64,000 nt of DNA from an uncultured archaeon (GCA_963799775.1 CAWCYD010000002.1:224001-288000), one strand, 5' to 3'; shown: positions 1-9,012, counted from the first letter of the stretch. The notes: generated from the letters alone by a model not told the origin. A program made the numbers and translations.

Positions 1-146
1 CACCTGAAAGACCTCTTCGTCCCGTCGGCCACCCTGCTCGAGCTCATGCCCGTAGCGTCCTCTGTCCAAGCTGCCAATACATCGAGTCGAGACGCAGTAG
101 CCCTACGTGAGCGCAGGTAGAGAGTTGCGGGTTAGTTAATTCCCTT

Positions 147-185
147 CCCCTTGTGTGTTTTTTGGACCGTTTTCTAGGTCTATAC
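147..185 (+). repeat. 39-bp direct repeat, copy 1 (copy 2 at 1598-1636)
   Basis: ccccttgtgtgttttttggaccgttttctaggtctatac vs ccccttgtgtgttttttggaccattttcatggtctatac, 36/39 identical. Confidence 0.9.
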
Positions 186-258
186 GGCTGCCGCTTCGCT
201 GAAACGCTCGACTTTCAGCCTGGTCGACGCGGGAAGGCGGGCTGGGCGGTGCCTCACA

Positions 259-1482
259 CTAGGGAGGAGAGTGACCGGTGCAGTAGAACTTCCTTTGAAC
301 GAGTCCCTTCGAAAAGACGTGCTGGTCGCATAGTCCCTTTCCACAAACAAGGCATGCTTTGCCGTGCTTTTCGCACGCCAGGTCGCCACACTCCTCGCAA
401 ATCCGCTCGGGCGCACGTCCGTCTTCCGGCCTGACGCTGCAACGAGAGAACCCGTCATCAAGAATCTTTCCGGTCGCCGCTTGGATCATTCTTCGGTACC
501 GCTTGTCGCGATAAGAATAGGTCACGAACAAGAGCGGGATTTCTACGAACCTGGCGTAAAGCAAGCCCACGTCGTTCACCCGGGGTCTAACGGTCGCTTG
601 TTGCGAGACAGTTCTTCGATTGCTTCCGTAGCCGTGCGTGGTCTCGTAAGTGTATTGACGGGAGATCCCTTTTGTCAGTTCGATTTGTGCGATTCGCCGG
701 GCGTCGCTCTCGCTTAACTTCGGAGGCGACACGTCGACCCTGGAAAACTTGATGCCCTCAAACGCCAAGGTTTTGGGAACTGTTGTGCTCGCGATGTTAC
801 TACAAACCGCGAGGTGACCGAAGTTAGGCAGGGCAGGGCTTGTTCCCGTTTCGCAGAACGAATCAACGACATCGCCCCGCAGCGCGTCAACCACGACCAA
901 ACCCTTGCTCTCAAGATTCACGAGCTGGAAGTTGACCCGGTCCTGTGTAAAGCAATGGTACCCCAGAAAATAGTAGGGAGCATACGTGAGAACTGTATCC
1001 GAAGGCTGCAGGAGCCTGTGGTTCAACAGGTGCGTAGGTGCGAGGACGGCTCCGAGAGACCTTATCAGAGGGAGGGCATTAGGAATCTCCTCCGAAGAGA
1101 GCTTATCGTGAACCAGCTTGTCTTTCAAGGTCGAGGAATCCCATACCTCCAGCCCCCTCCCTTTGGCGTATTCTAGCGCTGGTATGGTGAATCCTCCTGT
1201 AGATACAAACACGCCTTTTGCATAGCCCAGAGACGATAGCTTGTCGTTGAAGTTCCTGATGTCTTCGATTCCAATAGGCGCAACATGGTTCTTGCACTCC
1301 ACAGCGATTGTGAAGGTTCCAATGGGTTCTTGCCTCCGCCCCAAGACGTCAATTTCGTGTTCGATTCCCAATTTGTCCTTGGGCCTGATTCTTGTCTGGA
1401 CTTCGTAACCCCATCCCCTGAGAAGCCCCGCCACAATATCCTCTAAGGAAGTGCCCTTTGCGACGGCCTCTACCTCGTCCAT
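259..1482 (-). CDS. Mrr-like (type IV) restriction endonuclease domain protein with C-terminal Cys/His zinc fingers
   Basis: N-terminal LE..VA.LL..WGY, EIDV..AVECKN, GVFVSTGGFT..A (Mrr_cat PD-(D/E)xK pattern); C-terminal CEECGDLACEKH..CLVCGKGLCDQH..CTGH. Start placed at MDEVE (ORF track extends to 1584). Confidence 0.8.
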   Translation of the reverse strand: MDEVEAVAKGTSLEDIVAGLLRGWGYEVQTRIRPKDKLGIEHEIDVLGRRQEPIGTFTIAVECKNHVAPIGIEDIRNFNDKLSSLGYAKGVFVSTGGFTIPALEYAKGRGLEVWDSSTLKDKLVHDKLSSEEIPNALPLIRSLGAVLAPTHLLNHRLLQPSDTVLTYAPYYFLGYHCFTQDRVNFQLVNLESKGLVVVDALRGDVVDSFCETGTSPALPNFGHLAVCSNIASTTVPKTLAFEGIKFSRVDVSPPKLSESDARRIAQIELTKGISRQYTYETTHGYGSNRRTVSQQATVRPRVNDVGLLYARFVEIPLLFVTYSYRDKRYRRMIQAATGKILDDGFSRCSVRPEDGRAPERICEECGDLACEKHGKACLVCGKGLCDQHVFSKGLVQRKFYCTGHSPP

Positions 1483-1597
1483 ATGGAAGACAATAAGAAA
1501 ATTACGCATTTGAGCATTATGAACGCCAACTTCTACGCAGTTTGACCACCAAAAGGGGATATTCCCTTCAATGATTTTCGCCACTTTCGATAGCCTC

Positions 1598-1636
1598 CCC
1601 CTTGTGTGTTTTTTGGACCATTTTCATGGTCTATAC
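1598..1636 (+). repeat. 39-bp direct repeat, copy 2
   Basis: Matches 147-185 at 36/39. Confidence 0.9.
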
Positions 1637-1693
1637 CGACATCCTGCCAGCCGCAAGAGCTGGGCAGACTCCGCCTCCCTTGGCTCGCGGCTT

Positions 1694-1849
1694 TGGCAAC
1701 GCGGCAGAGCAGGGTTGCCAAATTACGGGTCGAACGTTGCCAAAACCCGTCCTGGGGTTGCCAAAACCGAGGCAGGAGGTTGCCAAATCGCCATCCAGGG
1801 TTGCCATTTGGATCGCGGGGTTGCCAACAGCCGTCCCGAGAATGGCAAC
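1694..1849. repeat. Iteron-like array: six direct GTTGCCA heptamers at 20-22 bp spacing, flanked by two inverted copies
   Basis: GTTGCCA at 1714, 1736, 1757, 1779, 1800, 1820; TGGCAAC at 1694 and 1843. Confidence 0.85.
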
Positions 1850-2054
1850 CTGCCCGACCCGCGTTAAATGCTGACCAGGCCTTTGAAGCCGTATTCCATC
1901 TTTCTCTCTTTTTGCGTACGGCACTTGAAGGTCTGGCGCGAGCGGACGCCATCGAACTGCCGGTCACGGGGCGAAGAGGTAGTCCTCTGCAACTACAGTC
2001 CGTCAGGTTTTTGACAGCTAAAATAGAAGCCCGTGTTTACTAAGAGATACTGAT

Positions 2055-2423
2055 ATGCCAGAGATGACAGAAAGCCTGCTCAAACGGAACCTCTACTCGG
2101 TGTTCAACGAGCGTGACGCAGAAAAACGCCGTGCCGCTATCGCGAATATCTGGACTGCTGACGGGGTCTTCATCGATCTTGACGGGCCTCATCACGGCCA
2201 AGCAGAATTGGATGAGACGGCCGCAAGCCTCCATGATCAGTTCCCCGGATATCTCTTTACTGTACTCGGTCCGATACAAGCGTTTCACGGCGTCGGGCGC
2301 TTTTCGTGGGCATTTGGGCCACCGAGCGAACCGATGAAGATTACGGGGATGGACGTGGGTGTCGTCACCGGAGGGCGAATGAGCGCCCTTTACACCTTCA
2401 TCGACCCTCCGAAAGACGACTGA
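2055..2423 (+). CDS. SnoaL-like/NTF2-family protein
   Basis: VFNERDAEKRRAAIA.IW..DG.F.D, GR.SW.FGP, G.D motif pattern typical of SnoaL_2. Confidence 0.8.
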   Translation: MPEMTESLLKRNLYSVFNERDAEKRRAAIANIWTADGVFIDLDGPHHGQAELDETAASLHDQFPGYLFTVLGPIQAFHGVGRFSWAFGPPSEPMKITGMDVGVVTGGRMSALYTFIDPPKDD

Positions 2424-2541
2424 AGGCTGACCACGACAAAGGCGAAATCACCCAGTTTGGGATACGCTCGCGGATCGCCCGTCAACGGGACAGGTGGGAT
2501 GCTCGCAGAAGATAAGGCGAAGGAAAGCCACAGCCACTAGC

Positions 2542-3517
2542 ATGTATGCCGCGCTAGACCTGCACGAGAAATCGATACAGTGCGTCCTCAAGGACGACGC
2601 TGGAAAGGTGATGAGGGAGTCGAAGGTGGCGAAGGACGAAGAAAAGATACTGGAATTCCTCGACGGCACAAATGCGAGCGTCGTCATGGAGTCCGGGTAC
2701 AACCATCAGCACATCCGCGACGTGCTGAAGGAGAAGGGATACGACGTGAAGGTCGCGCATCCGCTGATGGTGAAGGCCATCGCCTACGCAAAGGTGAAGA
2801 CGGACAAGGTCGACGCGAGGACGCTGGCGGACCTGCTGAGGGCGGACATGATACCCGAGTCCTACGTGCCGGACGAGAAGACCAGGGAGGTCAGGGACCT
2901 CGTCGAGGAGGAGGCATCACCTCGTCGAGACGCGCACCGGGTTCAAGAGCAAGGTGAAGGCGGAGCTCGCGAAGCGATGGGTGAAGCACGAGGGCGACGT
3001 CTTCACGCGGGAAGGGAGGAAGTTCCTGAGGTCCCTCCACATCGACGCGGTGGACGACTACATGGACACCATCGAGTTCCTGGACGGGAAGATCGGGGAG
3101 CTCGACCTGAAGGTGAAGGGGGTCGCCCTGCAGGACAAGTATGCGAAGCTCCTCGTCACGATACCCGGCGTCTCCCACTACTCGGCCCTCCTGATATCGA
3201 GCGAGATCGCAGACGTGAACAGATTCGCCGACCACGAGCACCTCTGCTCGTACGCAGGCCTCGTGCCAGGGTTGAGACAGTCGGCGGACAAGAGCCACTC
3301 GACACCCAACAGGACGAGGAGCGTGATGCTGAACTGGATAATGGTCCAGTGCACGCGCGTCCACGTGAGGTGGTGCGACTCCTCGATAACGAAATTCTAC
3401 GTGGAGCTCGCGAAGAGGAGGGGCGAGAAGGTGGCGATCGTGGCCGCAGCGAGGAAGCTCATGCGGGCCATGTACATCATGCTGAAGGAGGAACAGACCT
3501 TCAGGCTGGACGGCTGA
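2542..3517 (+). CDS. IS110-family transposase/recombinase (one frameshift near 2905)
   Basis: ALDLH, VMES, KTDKVDA (DEDD RuvC); TIPGVS..A..I.SEI.D..RF, SYAGLVP...QS, VAAARKL; split across ORFs 2494-3531 and 2954-3517. Confidence 0.95.
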
Positions 3518-4024
3518 GCAAAAAGAGCTAGAGCCCGTTAGGTTCTTGCGCCTCAGAGCGCGTGGAACAGGTTGGGCCACAGGCTACCGCGAAAGCCACA
3601 ATGCTCCAAAGAGAGCGAATGGGAGAATGCCCTCCGTCCAGCATAAATATGCAGAACACGACGACATGGGAGACCTTCAGGCTGGACGGCTGAGCAAAAA
3701 GAGCTAGAGCCCGTTAGGTTCTTGCGCCTCAGAGCGCGTGGAACAGGTTGGGCCACAGGCTACCGCGAAAGCCACAATGCTCCAAAGAGAGCGAATGGGA
3801 GAATGCCCTTCCGTCCAGCATAAATATGCAGAACACGACGACATGGGAGACCTTCAGGCTGGACGGCTGAGCAAAAAGAGCTAGAGCCCGTTAGGTTCTT
3901 GCGCCTCAGAGCGCGTGGAACAGGTTGGGCCACAGGCTACCGCGAAAGCCACAATGCTCCAAAGAGAGCGAATGGGAGAATGCCCTTCCGTCCAGCATAA
4001 ATATGCAGAACACGACGACATGGG
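3495..4024 (+). repeat. Three tandem 176-177 bp copies of transposase 3' tail plus non-coding right end
   Basis: Units start at 3495, 3671, 3848; identical except one T missing in copy 1. Confidence 0.97.
3518..3670 (+). ncRNA. Putative IS110 bridge/seek RNA region (first of three copies)
   Basis: Non-coding, hairpin-rich right end; GGTTCT (3541) and ACAGGT (3567) flank a GCGC-ctcaga-GCGC hairpin and match the two IS flanks. Confidence 0.55.
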
Positions 4025-4444
4025 AGAACCCAAACCCGAGCGCGGCAACCTTATCAGGACGGGACCAGGTCGGGAGGCCAAGGGCATGGAACCTAAGCAG
4101 GAAGAGGAGAAGAGGAAGCCGTCAAGGGCCGAACTCGAGAGGCTGGCTGTAAAGTTGAGTGAACAACTGCAGGGCAAGCTGAAGGGTCACGTGGACGGAG
4201 ACGCCGAGGAGTACCTCTTCAGGACGATGGAGAAGAAAAGGCCGGGTTCCTCATCGCAGCGACGGGCCTTGAGTTCGGCGCTGACTCGGCCATAACCACC
4301 TACAGGAAGTCCGCGAAGCTCGGCATCGTGCCGGTCTTCTGATCCCGTTGCGGATATTATTCATATCCGCCTCTCTTCTTTTTTTGGCCCGTTTTTTCTG
4401 CCTCGCTACCAGCCTAGCCACCCTCTCGGTGGGTTCTGGCTGGT

Positions 4445-4603
4445 CTACGCCTTCTCTATCACGACCCGCTTGCCTTCTATCCTGGCGACCAGCTCCTCGA
4501 GGGGCTTGAAGGGGAAGGCGCTGTCCCTGACAAGCTCCGATGGCAGGTTGATGCTGTGCCTCCCGCCTGACACATAGATCTTGACCTTTGCCTGGGCTGT
4601 CAA
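4445..4603 (-). CDS. Small AbrB/MazE/SpoVT-like DNA-binding protein (52 aa, not in ORF track)
   Basis: MTAQAKVKIYVSGGRHSINLPSELVRDSAFPFKPLEELVARIEGKRVVIEKA; TATA-like ttatat upstream. Confidence 0.7.
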   Translation of the reverse strand: MTAQAKVKIYVSGGRHSINLPSELVRDSAFPFKPLEELVARIEGKRVVIEKA

Positions 4604-4720
4604 CGGGTGCCGCTCACGTATGTACGCGATATAATACTTGGGTGGCTTCGCCGGTATGTATGCCGTTATATCCCTACCTCGTCAGGAAGCTCGTTGATGG
4701 GTCGATATCGGAGATTTACT

Positions 4721-7700
4721 TTACATGGGTTCCGGACCGGCCTGACTGGAGGCATTAGCGTCTGCCTTTTCCTGATTTGCTGACCGCATCGTGTTAGCCA
4801 GAGCCTTTATTGCGGAATAAGCGCCATTCTGGAAGCGCTCGACCATATGGAGTCTCTCGGCAGGGTCCGAGATTCCTAGTATTCTCAATACTCCATCATC
4901 TAGCTCCAGCCTGAAAGAAGCAGGGGATTCGAGTTGCTCCAATAATGAGGGGACTTTGCGCTTGCTGAGTTTTTCCCAGAGAGCCTCTATTGCTTGAAAG
5001 TCCTTTTCAGTGAGTTTAGAGACATCAGGAACTGGGCACCTATCCATCGCATATTCTTCGAGATCCATGTATGTTCCTCTGGTAATGCGTGCTCTGCCAA
5101 GATAGGAGACTATGAATGGAGACGAGTTGAACCAGAGACATAGGAATTTCTCTTGTGCCGCGTTGGAAATTCCGGTGAAGTATTTTCCTTTGATCACTAC
5201 GAACGCAGGTTGTTCGTGTCTAACACAAATGAATGCCGTCCCCTTTGCAGCCCAGTCCACTCGCCACATCATTAGCAATCTTGAAGAGCCTCTAGTGACC
5301 ATTTGACTCCATCCCTTCCGGAGTCTTCTCAGAATTTGGTCGGCTTCGTGTGGGGGGTAGTAGGTTTGGATTAGTCTTTCTATTAGGGGTGTTATTTCGG
5401 CAACGCAGAAATCTGATTCGTCAGAGACGTCGAGAGATTTCAGGTAGGAAAAACGCCTAATCGCTGGGACCATGATTGACGTGGGTATCTCGTAAACGGA
5501 ACTTGTGACTCGGTCTTGGGCCACAACTTTGTCTGCGGTCGTCCTGCTAGCAAATAATCTGTCAGTTTCTTGCTTTATGGATCGCTGCCTTGTGCGAGAT
5601 ACGATGACAGCTTTGGGCCCATAACTTGAAAAGTTCCTTCCACTGAATACACATTCAGTTGCTTCGATTCCAGCAGTGGTAGTCAGCTGACCAAATTGGA
5701 TTAAGGGGATGGTCGACTTGTCGATGAGTTTTTGGAGCTGTGCGTTTGCCAAATCGTATTCTTCGAGGAGGCTGAGATAAAGTCCCGATAGGGTTCGGGA
5801 TTCCGGCAGCAATTCCTGTTGGGGAACGACGCGGCGAATTGAAAAATGGTCTTGACCTTCCTTGGATAGCTTGAGCTGGTCCACCAACTTGCTGAGGTCC
5901 CTGCTCTGTCCACTCATCGGGTGGTTTCCGCGTTCCGATTATCATGAAATCTCTGTCAGGAGCAGGTTTCTGTTTGCTGGCGACCAATAGACACTCCGTC
6001 AGACTCGTGTCTTCGCTATATGCGGCTCTTCCAAGGCTGAGGAAAATAGCTTGGACGGAGTAATGGGTTAGGAAATACCGCACGAATGGGTGAAATGATT
6101 TGGCAGTGAACGTGGTAAGAGGAAGTACCGCCCCCACTCGTCCTTTGGGATTGAGGAAGATGTCAGCGAGGAAAAGAAAGAACAGTTGTTGGCTTGGCTT
6201 GAAGAAGATTAACGGTTTGTATTTAGCGATGCGGGAGAAGCTCTGAGCGAGACCGTCTCTATATCGCGGATCCATGTTATCCCAAGAAGTAAAGGGCGGG
6301 TTCATTATCAGGACGTCTACATGGTTCACGGCGAATCCTTTCGCTTCAGAACGGCGCATCCTTACTGTTCTCGTTCTCGCCGGAATCTCAAGATTATCGA
6401 AATCTGATTCCAGGGTAGTTTGGTGAAATTCGGATGGCAAGGCCTCGCCAGTTGTTGGGACGATAGAGCCTGGGCGAAGCAATGTGGAATCGGTGGTGCC
6501 TATCCGAACGTGGTCAGTCTCCTTCAGTGGTTGCTGAATGGCCAAGTTGACCGCAGCCAAATGACCTGAAAACGCCATCGCATCTATTCCGGTGATTTGT
6601 TCCTCTACGAACTTCCTGTGGAGGTCGAATTGGTCACCTTTGGCCAAGGCTAGTTTGCGCTTGTAGGACGCCACCAGGAGCGTCCCACTACCGCAAGCTG
6701 GGTCCATGATGGAATCGTCGGCAGTTTCGACGACGCAGGCAGCGAGCAATGCTGCGGGATTGGGATTGGTGTAGTGGGCTCCTAGTGGCTTGCGGATATC
6801 GAGGGGAATTAGACTCTGAAAGACTTGGCCGGCCAAGTCGATTGATCTTAGCTTTGGGGAGAGGGACATGATGGCTGTAGCGACATCCCTACAAGCAAGT
6901 TTAGACTTCTGGCCTTTGAATAACTGTGAGACTTTTATCCCATAAACGGGTTCATAGTCTTGTTCCCTGACTCGGTCGAAGTATACCTGAAGCTTCTCGG
7001 GAGAGCCCGCATCTTCGAGGGTGATGCTCTTGTATTTTCCATCGCCCTTCCTTTCAGATTCCCGCGATAGCAATGAATAGAATAAGACCTGGTTGACGAA
7101 AAGGAAAGCTGCGCCTAGCCTGAGAATTCGAGGTCTTTGCTCCTTTGGAATTTGGGCAGCCAATACAGAACGGAAGAAATGATGTCCGCCGAATTCCTTT
7201 TCGAGCTCTTGATGAGGAACGCCCCTCAATGTGTCGCCGAGGTTGAGCGCGGCGGCTCTGAGTAGTCTCCGGGCTTCAACTTGGGTCGGCTCCGCTCTCT
7301 TCTGGACTTCGGCAAATTCACCACGAAGGGCTTTGGATATTTCTTCAACAAGTTCTTCGAATGACGTTAAGATTCTTGGAATCTCATCATGAAGTGTTGT
7401 GCGAGCGAGGATGTGAAGTATGAAATTGTGCTCATGTTTTGCGGGATAAACGACCGCGAATACCTCGCCCAGCTCTTTTCCGGTGAGTTCCTCGGTGAGA
7501 GGGATTTGCTGAGAATACTCCTGCGCAGTGACCAAGGCGTCGATTTCGTGGTTCATGCCAAGCTTGGCGCTCAAAATATGAATCAGCCCATTGTAGACGG
7601 CGATGTCCGGCTTCTTGATTCGATGTTCGCCACCTAGCGAGAGATGAAAGACCGGGCTGGGGCCTTCGGCATTGAAACCCTTGTCGCGCAATGCAGCCGC

Positions 7701-7739
7701 GAGGCGCCCGGTCCAGGGGTCTTCGGTTCGACTTGACAT
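4721..7739 (-). CDS. Fused restriction-modification enzyme (type IIG/IIL-like N6-adenine MTase + nuclease + TRD), frameshift near 5915
   Basis: LGAHYT, DPACGSGTLL (motif I), MNPPF (motif IV); N-terminal KPDI..ILSAK; C-terminal LWFNS...LD..V..ILG specificity-like region. Confidence 0.85.
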
Positions 7740-7873
7740 TGCGGAGTTATGCGCCACAGTTGGCTCGCAAGAGAATGATATAAAATGAAAGTTTGTTTGA
7801 AAGCTGAAGATCATTGGAAATTGTTAGCGGGAGAGAAAGAGGGTTTGGGAGAAAAATCGAAGATTTGTCGCCC

Positions 7874-7891
7874 CCGAAGCGCCGGAGGCGC
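7874..7891. repeat. Short GC-rich hairpin element, also at 42549-42571
   Basis: ccgaagcgccggaggcgc vs ccgaagcgccgaaggcgc, 17/18 identical. Confidence 0.7.
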
Positions 7892-7926
7892 GAGGGCTCT
7901 CTTTCATTCAAAGGTAATGTGACAGG

Positions 7927-9012
7927 TCAGACTGCGCCTAGGTTTTGGAGGAGCTGCGAGAGAGAGGTTTTTTCTCCCTGGTCGTTCGACGCCGCAAGTC
8001 GCTTCCACGCGTCATTCTCAAACTTAGCAAGGTACTTGTCCTTTCTCTTCCCGTGATATGTTGAACTTGCTTGGCTTGAACCTTGGAAGTAATTTATTAT
8101 CGGAAAAACACTATTGGGGTTGGGAAAGACTTTCCAAGCATACTCGTAAATCTCATCATCGAAGTCTCCAATGTTGTACCTTCCGAGAAGTTCCAAGGCC
8201 ATGGCCTTTTCACCAGAAGATCTGGCGTCGTCCAGAATTTGTTGTTTTAGTAATTGTGAATATTTCTTCTCGTGAGCCGCTTCCAGTTTGTTAGACGTTC
8301 GATACAGTGCATTGACAAAGTCAGAAATTGGTTTCTCTTGGACCGGAATTTCTTTGTTCGACACCAGGCCGAAGACAAGATCGATCATTTGTAAATCGTA
8401 CTTACTCTCGGCAAGTAGCTTACAAATTGCTCTGACAGCTAGGAAGCGAGTGTTGGGATTTTCAAGTTTTGGGTAATAGTATCCTTCAGCCCTCTTCCGA
8501 ATTTCGTTCAAATTAGCGTCCCTCAGAATATCCTTTGGTTCACTAGCTCTCCTCAAGTTGCTGATCAGTTTGGAGTAAATCCTGAGGGTTCTGACCGAGA
8601 TTCGATGGTAGACCGAAACCCCTGTAATGTCATTCAGTATCTTCGTCCAAGATTCAATTTCGATGGGGACCTCATCGTTTAGTTTCTCGCGGACCTTTTG
8701 GAATAATGGAATGCCGCTGATAATGCTCTCGTAATCTTGCTTTGTGGGATTCTCGAGCAGTCGATTTGCCAATTCCGTCAATTCAAAGGTGTCCCTCCGT
8801 CCATGCAAGAGACCGTACCGAACGAGCGATGCTATCTTCTGCCTGAACATCCCACTGTTTGGCGATTTGTGTCCCTCGGCCAGTGCGAAGGCTATCATCC
8901 TGCTACGCTCGACCTTTCCGCCGAAGTCATGAGCTATGTCAGATATCATTTTCCGAGCTTGTTCGATGTCGATGTCTGGATAGAGAAACTGCGTCTTTGG
9001 GATTTGGCCCAT
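7927..9012 (-). CDS. Hypothetical protein, probable N-terminal winged helix and helical C-terminus
   Basis: 361-aa ORF; KIASLVRYGLL...FELTELA wHTH-like pattern. Confidence 0.6.
   Translation of the reverse strand: MGQIPKTQFLYPDIDIEQARKMISDIAHDFGGKVERSRMIAFALAEGHKSPNSGMFRQKIASLVRYGLLHGRRDTFELTELANRLLENPTKQDYESIISGIPLFQKVREKLNDEVPIEIESWTKILNDITGVSVYHRISVRTLRIYSKLISNLRRASEPKDILRDANLNEIRKRAEGYYYPKLENPNTRFLAVRAICKLLAESKYDLQMIDLVFGLVSNKEIPVQEKPISDFVNALYRTSNKLEAAHEKKYSQLLKQQILDDARSSGEKAMALELLGRYNIGDFDDEIYEYAWKVFPNPNSVFPIINYFQGSSQASSTYHGKRKDKYLAKFENDAWKRLAASNDQGEKTSLSQLLQNLGAV

Follow-up and report, generated by a model that had tools for sequence, protein, structure and literature searches.

Three tandem copies of a predicted guide-RNA gene at the right end of an archaeal IS110-family insertion sequence

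An insertion sequence of a Nitrososphaeria-type archaeon carries its right non-coding end three times in tandem, and each repeat unit comprises one whole RNA gene (~138 nt) and one right terminus of the element. The host element belongs to the IS110 family, is 1179 bp long when counted with a single tail and has an IS1111-like layout. It lies in a stretch of 64,000 nucleotides, hereafter the window, whose first letter is position 1 for all coordinates below. From the form of its joints, we lean towards the view that the array is a product of guide-directed self-recombination rather than random slippage. In all likelihood the triplication supplies the element with three guide-RNA genes of the same sequence and as many usable right ends, without adding specificities.

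The element and its repeated right end

The family assignment made in a first-pass annotation of the window is confirmed by the transposase. In the intact genomic copy (L001:1161-2132:-, 324 aa; G000:C3:457318-458506), the protein matches Pfam PF01548 (DEDD_Tnp_IS110; 5.2e-21, residues 4-142) and PF02371 (Transposase_20; 3.6e-16, residues 202-286), and the N-terminal DEDD/RuvC-like and C-terminal Transposase_20 domains of the IS110 family (sensu lato) are thus both present. In the window the gene occupies 2542-3517 on the plus strand, as placed by Pfam on the intact copy and by alignment of the copies, and is frameshifted by an extra G at 2905 that a contig of public run X1 lacks. Searching the genome by blastn with window positions 2301-4200, followed by a three-way alignment, revealed two more copies of the element, both on contig C3 and each with one tail. 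The second C3 copy (L002) is frameshifted by an extra T, leaving just one of the three intact. Apart from tail number the three are nearly identical, and they differ mostly by single-base indels (+G, +T, -T) as against one substitution. Relatives with 58-93% protein identity come from Nitrososphaerales and Candidatus Gagatemarchaeum metagenome-assembled genomes and from soil and peat metagenome contigs.

Empty sites define the boundaries of the element. A genome of the same genus (G017), with a left flank 99% identical to that of the window, reads ...CAACGGGAC-AG-AACCAAACCC... at the uninterrupted site, its right part further read as AACCAAACCCGAGCG, and a 324-nt contig of run X1 holds the same empty join. 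Comparing occupied and empty sites places AG on both sides of the element, which therefore runs from GTGGGATG... at 2494 to ...GACATGGG plus AG. The target is GGGAC-AG-AACC with AG as its core dinucleotide, and the left junction ends in AG at 18 of 18 distinct loci. Insertion is site-specific, at a shared core dinucleotide and without terminal inverted repeats, as expected of the IS110 family.

The two ends are unequal. A short left end (GTGGGATGCTCG..., 2494-2541, plus strand; 48 nt to the ATG) was delimited by the three-copy alignment and is kept in relatives, while the right end extends 155 nt past the stop codon, matching the longer downstream non-coding region of the IS1111 group. Exact-match comparison of the first 70 with the last 72 nt found no subterminal inverted repeat of at least 6 nt, the longest inverted match being 5 nt against an IS1111-group expectation of 7-17 bp. 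Because no such repeat was found and the right donor guide (below) has only a short candidate, we file the element as IS110 family with an IS1111-like layout and as a possible member of the IS1111 group at most. Within the left end, a conserved GATAAGG-type box at 2510-2517, ~25 nt upstream of the transposase ATG, could be the native promoter of a leaderless mRNA; a similar box, GATAAAAGG, occurs in the right ends of deep-branching relatives.

Tandem Repeats Finder (TRF) reports a single array within window positions 1-8000, at 3495-4027, with a period of 177, 3.0 copies, 99% matches, a score of 1059 and no indels scored, in agreement with the three-copy tandem right end described by the first-pass annotation. 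Across the whole genome (2.47 Mb in three contigs; score of at least 200) TRF returned six rows, five of them with a period of at least 60. Among those five the array alone exceeds 82% identity; as the sole near-perfect long-period repeat in the genome, it is not background.

Sequence reading, TRF and motif placement resolve the array into three plus-strand tail units, each closed by the dinucleotide AG. Unit 1 (3497-3672, 176 nt) lacks one T at 3633/3634 and ends in CATGGG plus AG, its terminus and core being placed at 3663-3672. Unit 2 covers 3673-3849 (177 nt) and unit 3 covers 3850-4026 (177 nt); as alignment of the copies and the empty site also indicate, the closing AG of unit 3 (4025-4026) adjoins the true right flank, AACC at 4027-4030. 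The left edge of the array is the AG at 3495-3496 and its right edge is the exact right terminus of the element. As first described, the repeat takes in the final 23 bp of the transposase gene, whose stop codon is at 3515-3517, and the copies are identical save for the one T: unit 1 reads GCCCT-CCG where units 2 and 3 read GCCCTTCCG, and the TT of units 2 and 3 also occurs in both other genomic copies of the element.

Two further claims of the first-pass annotation need a different wording. AGA microhomology is indeed present at the junctions, yet we prefer to see in it the AG core dinucleotide followed by a single chance A. The agreement of the unit length with the 177-nt bridge RNA of IS621 is a coincidence: the unit is as long as it is because an internal pseudo-target lies that far from the right terminus, and within it the structured RNA takes up ~138 nt (3505-3642). 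The proposal of three alternative right ends holds, with one right terminus in every unit.

The element is flanked by a SnoaL-like gene (2055-2423) on one side and a small ORF of 69 aa (4086-4295) on the other. Further upstream, a 441-aa ORF on the minus strand (259-1584) encodes an Mrr_cat restriction-endonuclease domain (PF04471, 8.9e-16), and several adjacent hairpins of type AATGCACAAGGGTTGTGCATT lie just upstream of the window (G000:C2:223026-223326). The G017 genome and contigs of runs X1 and X2 part from the window at 4250 (region ~4250-4330). In G017 the empty target is followed, after a few hundred bases, by a different IS110-family transposase (~31% identical; L120 1-1250, minus strand), and the stretch near this target seems to be a landing zone for IS110-family elements. 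At 4029-4031 the window reads AACCCAAACCC where the G017 empty site and the X1 contig read AACCAAACCC, a C-run one base longer that reflects either a base-calling error or real variation. This difference, together with the indel-type differences among the copies of the element, makes some base-level assembly error likely.

The predicted RNA and its guides

The right non-coding tail is predicted to encode a bridge/seek RNA of ~138 nt, and covariation of both helices and guides upholds the earlier placement of a guide RNA in this end. The first gene copy lies at 3505-3642 on the plus strand, placed from the structure of relatives, the fold and a covariance model, and is closed by helix P0, which pairs 3505-3513 with 3634-3642. 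Copies 2 and 3 lie at 3681-3819 and 3858-3996 on the same strand, and the covariance model, R1, matches all three with E values of 3e-44 to 4e-40.

We gathered tails from 38 loci holding the C-terminal end of a related transposase and aligned (A2, A3) the 31 distinct tails with at least 55% protein identity and a recognisable terminus; L039, a duplicate, was left out, as were L052 and L011, in which no right end could be recognised. On this alignment RNAalifold alone gave two hairpins with compensatory changes. Two further helices were added by eye and by a pair scan: GCCC/GGGC, and an outer helix in which the last transposase codons, GCTGGAYGG, pair with CCRTCCAGC near the tail end. RNAalifold also offered a long-range helix of GGTTGGGC with GC..CCATCC, which we set aside: its third pair is left unpaired by a G-to-A change in five sequences. 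That change is compensated in the pairing with the upstream GCCC, which is therefore preferred.

The structure is conserved, as the first-pass reading called for. On alignment A3 the four helices comprise 22 pairs, or 682 cells, and 98.7% of these are paired across the 31 relatives; sliding the 3' partners by one to three columns lowers the figure to 28-43%. Compensatory changes on both sides occur in 10 of the 22 pairs, and none of 500 column shuffles reached the observed pairing, compensatory-pair count or covariation score. Part of this covariation signal is phylogenetic, since a deep branch of the family alters many positions together, and the slid controls are the fairer comparison. Folding unit 3 as a single sequence recovered P0, P1, P2 and P5 (MFE -56.5 kcal/mol, z = -2.36).

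An Rfam 15 scan of window positions 1-8000 gave no match at E<=1. R1 finds the RNA in 17 of 151 related genomes. Partial R1 matches of 40 nt, covering model positions 85-124 only, occur in G215 (three contigs) and G025 (one contig) and may represent a short repeat related to the middle of the RNA. Occurrences of a 14-nt conserved tail motif at C2:223186, C3:806 and C3:522455 do not align to the tail and are chance matches. Of the two loci without a recognisable right end, L011 (G031:C50) has a 72%-identical transposase followed by unrelated sequence without a recognisable tail RNA, and next to it a convergent second IS110-family gene, 39% identical. L052, with an 86%-identical protein, has a right end that stops just past the A/T box described below and continues as AACCTATTTC, resembling the flank of L048; it may be a deletion variant of the terminus.

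The guides were read from covariation between the RNA and the DNA around each element. The seven nucleotides before GGTTGGG in the RNA correspond to the seven (core included) that precede the left end of each element, with examples including TTTACAG, TTAAGAG, GCACCAG, TCGAAAG, TCTTGAG and TCTGTAG. Left flank and left guide agree at 84 of 126 variable positions in 18 distinct loci; shuffles agree at a mean of 51 and a maximum of 70, and 0 of 10000 reach 84. In the window this left target guide is GGAACAG (3564-3570, repeated at 3740 and 3917; plus strand), in the same sense as the left target and core. It fits 6/7 of the left half of the chromosomal target, GGGAC plus core AG (2492-2493), which the G017 and X1 empty sites place at 2487-2493 on the plus strand.

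On the other side, the right target guide GGTTCT (3541-3546, repeated at 3717 and 3894; plus strand) is the reverse complement of AG|AACC. Across 28 loci the right flank agrees with the reverse complement of the right guide at 143 of 196 positions (shuffles: mean 110, maximum 129; 0 of 10000 reach 143). The guide changes with the flank, as in GGTTTCT with AG|AAACC, GATTTCT with AG|AAATC, GGATTCT with AG|AATCC, CCGTTCT with AG|AACGG and AATTTACT with AG|TAAATT.

A third segment follows the element itself. The left donor guide AATGGGAG (3618-3625, repeated at 3794 and 3971; plus strand) has the same sense as the right terminus CATGGGAG, and in 25 of 29 loci the donor guide, AATGGGAG or AATAGGAG, tracks the terminus, CATGGGAG or CATAGGAG (ATGGGAG/ATAGGAG variants). 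For the right donor guide there is only a 4-nt candidate, CCAC against GTGG of the left end, which does not covary.

Downstream of the RNA, the A/T content of the tails marks an A/T box, ATAAATAT (3643-3650, repeated at 3820 and 3997; plus strand), at a distance of 22 nt from the core's end. Despite sequence divergence, 27 of the 31 tails have their most A/T-rich 8-mer at a similar place, 22-31 nt away from the terminus. We regard the box as a candidate outward-facing archaeal TATA box or promoter. Were it one, it could be expected to express the transposase once a circle junction has formed and, in the array, to express tails 2 and 3. The RNA run X18, whose contigs come from a 90-95% relative, covers 2491-3011 only and does not reach the tails.

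All guide segments are identical across the three units, so the array brings no gain in specificity and a diversifying multi-guide array is unsupported. The earlier suggestion that the locus is a raw state of such arrays thus lacks support, and no second tail appears in the loci or genomes of relatives. A blastn search with the unit found a second tail in none of 114 other loci, more than one match being confined to the window's own two of 116 loci. Among 401 genomes of the order, the tail-to-tail joint is present in the window's own and in 0 of the 400 others; adjacent R1 matches likewise occur in that genome alone among the 17 RNA-bearing genomes of 151 (0 of 16 others). Since the arrangement is unique among the loci and genomes searched, recurrence is not usable as support.

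Public contigs show other states of the locus. Among the Logan contigs listed for runs X1, X2, X3 (DNA) and X18 (RNA), none joins one tail back to another; such contigs collapse repeats and drop rare forms, and their silence is weak evidence, though it points against the array. A 300-nt X1 contig runs from 3407-3494 through one tail into 4028-4059. The X1 contigs indicate that empty and one-tail alleles exist in nature at this locus, the three-tail form so far coming from this assembly only. Tail copy number could not be read from contig depth, there being one depth figure per contig.

Origin of the array

The left boundary of the array coincides with a sequence that resembles a target of the element. 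Scoring 11-mers against GGAAC-AG-AACC identified an internal pseudo-target, GGAAC-AG-ACCT, at 3490-3500 on the plus strand, with its core AG at 3495-3496. Because GGAAC precedes this AG, positions 3490-3496 match the left target guide at 7/7. The pseudo-target scores 9/11 and is the only site of at least 9 in the element on either strand; three real insertion sites score 11, 10 and 9 on the same 11-mer. Sites of at least 9 number 442 among 4.94 million genomic positions, or ~9e-5 per position. Both internal joints read GACATGGG-AG-ACCTTCAGG, that is, right terminus, core and right half of the pseudo-target. A random breakpoint at the pseudo-target is very unlikely, since such sites are this rare and the other breakpoint is the exact terminus of the element.

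On the form of the joints, the 7/7 guide match and the standing of the pseudo-target as the best target-like site in the element, self-recombination directed by the element's own guides is the origin we give somewhat better than even chances. That the recombinase made the joints, and by which pathway, we infer as follows. The pseudo-target would have arisen by chance in codons 9 nt upstream of the RNA gene, with a sequence that matches the left target guide and the core at every position. The predicted RNA starts in the last transposase codons, and its outer helix would enclose a target-binding loop with the right target guide GGUUCU on the 5' side and the left target guide GGAACAG on the 3' side, the left donor guide AAUGGGAG coming next. 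A recombinase-RNA complex could then pair the pseudo-target with the element's own right junction, most simply on the sister chromosome copy. Such an excision-like synapsis would keep three of the four guide pairings: the left target guide would hold the pseudo-target, and the left donor and right target guides would hold the natural right junction. Exchange at AG would yield body-AG-tail-AG-tail, with two tails on one chromosome and none on the other. For the third copy, either a second round of self-recombination or ordinary unequal homologous exchange involving the tails could be responsible. Alternatively, a 177-bp tail circle might re-enter the pseudo-target, or a whole-element circle might insert there with subsequent loss of one body; published abstracts on excision efficiency and copy-out do not decide between these paths.

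Several observations weigh against self-targeting. The right half of the pseudo-target, ACCT, fits the expected AACC at only 2/4 positions in register, and the four-guide model is incomplete, with three of its guides placed. The transposase of the window copy is frameshifted, so any activity would need to be supplied in trans by the intact C3 copy. Finally, units 2 and 3 retain a T that is missing from unit 1; no simple order of events accounts for this pattern, short of a later mutation or a base-calling error.

The foremost rival, which we consider fairly unlikely, is an assembly artefact in which the source molecules carried one tail that the assembler or polisher multiplied. The three-contig, metagenome-type assembly and the indel-type base errors suggested by the copies of the element and by the C-run speak for it, as do the one-tail path of the X1 contig and the lack of a tail-to-tail joint in any of the runs' contigs. 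Yet the joint is the exact product expected of a recombinase, which an assembler would not invent. It occurs in no single-tail copy and in no circle of the element, and reads bearing it must therefore have existed. The array, at 531 bp, is also far below typical long-read length, and no other such duplication is found in 2.47 Mb.

Tandem duplication independent of the recombinase is, in our judgement, unlikely. On this account slippage or microhomology-mediated unequal exchange between the AGA at 3495-3497 and that at 4025-4027 created a second tail, homologous unequal exchange then gave the third, and the fit to the element is coincidental. The AG and the one A do constitute a 3-nt microhomology that slippage could use; from two tails a third needs mere homologous exchange, and the case for recombinase action is indirect. 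Set against these points, one breakpoint is the exact terminus of the element, the other is preceded by seven positions that match the left target guide at 7/7, in a kind of site found at ~9e-5 per position, and the genome holds no other recent long-period duplication.

That the array was selected, with extra guide RNA from the A/T box of the preceding tail raising transposition, or as a stage towards differing guides, is very improbable: every unit is a complete RNA gene and the box, whose position at 22-31 nt from the terminus is conserved in 27 of 31 tails, would lie upstream of units 2 and 3, but all three units carry the same guides, the neighbouring transposase gene is frameshifted, the genome has just three copies of the element, none of the relatives searched has an array, and the RNA run, itself from a relative, stops at 3011.

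Known systems and wider meaning

A precedent for self-recombination exists in ISPpu9 of Pseudomonas putida. The excerpts of the ISPpu9 report on which we draw (PMC12288879) describe recombination at AG, minicircles of sub-modules, use of ectopic AG sites when the ends are mutated, and tandem copies of ssr9 in two strains. We count this behaviour in favour of the self-recombination reading. ISPpu9/MITEPpu9 (ssr9) resembles the present element in the AG core, in a small-RNA module downstream of the transposase, which in ISPpu9 can form its own minicircle, and in tandem copies of that module. According to the same excerpts, however, the ISPpu9 module has its own copies of both ends (A'/B' boxes) and encodes an RNA that is not a guide, whereas the module repeated here is a predicted guide-RNA gene with the right end only, bounded on the left by a guide-matched pseudo-target. 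It does not fit the pattern of an autonomous module of the MITEPpu9 kind: the tail has no copy of the left end, and outside the array the genome has tails solely within the two full copies of the element.

In overall layout the element is closest to the IS1111 group. As in ISEc11, ISPa11 and ISKpn4, it combines DEDD and PF02371 domains, a short left end and a guide RNA in a long right end, where, in the sections drawn on, the group's RNA is placed (PMC11187229, PMC11208160). The guide order is also shared: in the seekRNA passages of PMC11187229, the top-strand match is the more 5' of the two, ahead of the bottom-strand match, with the core falling in their overlap. Unlike the group as described there, the present element has no subterminal inverted repeat (best inverted match 5 nt), its transposase of 324 aa falls below the quoted 330-350, its host is an archaeon, the first helix of its RNA uses the last transposase codons, and that RNA drew no match in Rfam.

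The bridge RNA of IS621, as portrayed in the portions of PMC11208160 and PMC11208158 drawn on here, is similarly bispecific, with a target loop flanked by helices, guides that pair with both strands around the core dinucleotide and a donor guide that matches the element terminus. It differs in lying in the left rather than the right end, in the reverse guide order, in a core of CT instead of AG and in a length of 177 rather than ~138 nt. CRISPR and TIGR arrays likewise consist of tandem units that each encode a guide RNA, but in the passages of PMC12045711 concerned their spacers differ from unit to unit and acquisition or processing is dedicated, whereas the array here consists of identical whole RNA genes with nothing to suggest array-type processing. 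Literature searches on IS110 tandem duplication and right ends and on archaeal or Thaumarchaeota bridge RNA, covering main texts, returned no tandem bridge-RNA genes, nor do the bridge-RNA passages of 10.64898/2026.10.21.760802 describe any.

At the level of sequence, the locus illustrates an RNA-guided recombinase that seems to have acted on its own element, and off-target and self-target events of bridge recombinases matter both for the evolution of such elements and for their use in genome editing. One might generalise: drift of target guides could create self-targets, and self-recombination could be a general IS110-family route to tail minicircles holding only the guide RNA and to tandem tails, each transcribed from the promoter of the preceding tail. 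We think this broader proposal quite improbable as it stands; if true, guide supply would no longer be tied to transposase expression, and MITE-like guide elements would be seeded in this way.

A further outcome of the analysis is an archaeal bridge/seek RNA family not represented in Rfam, whose gene overlaps the end of the transposase gene. The target code of this RNA is readable as 5 nt, the core AG and a further 4-7 nt.
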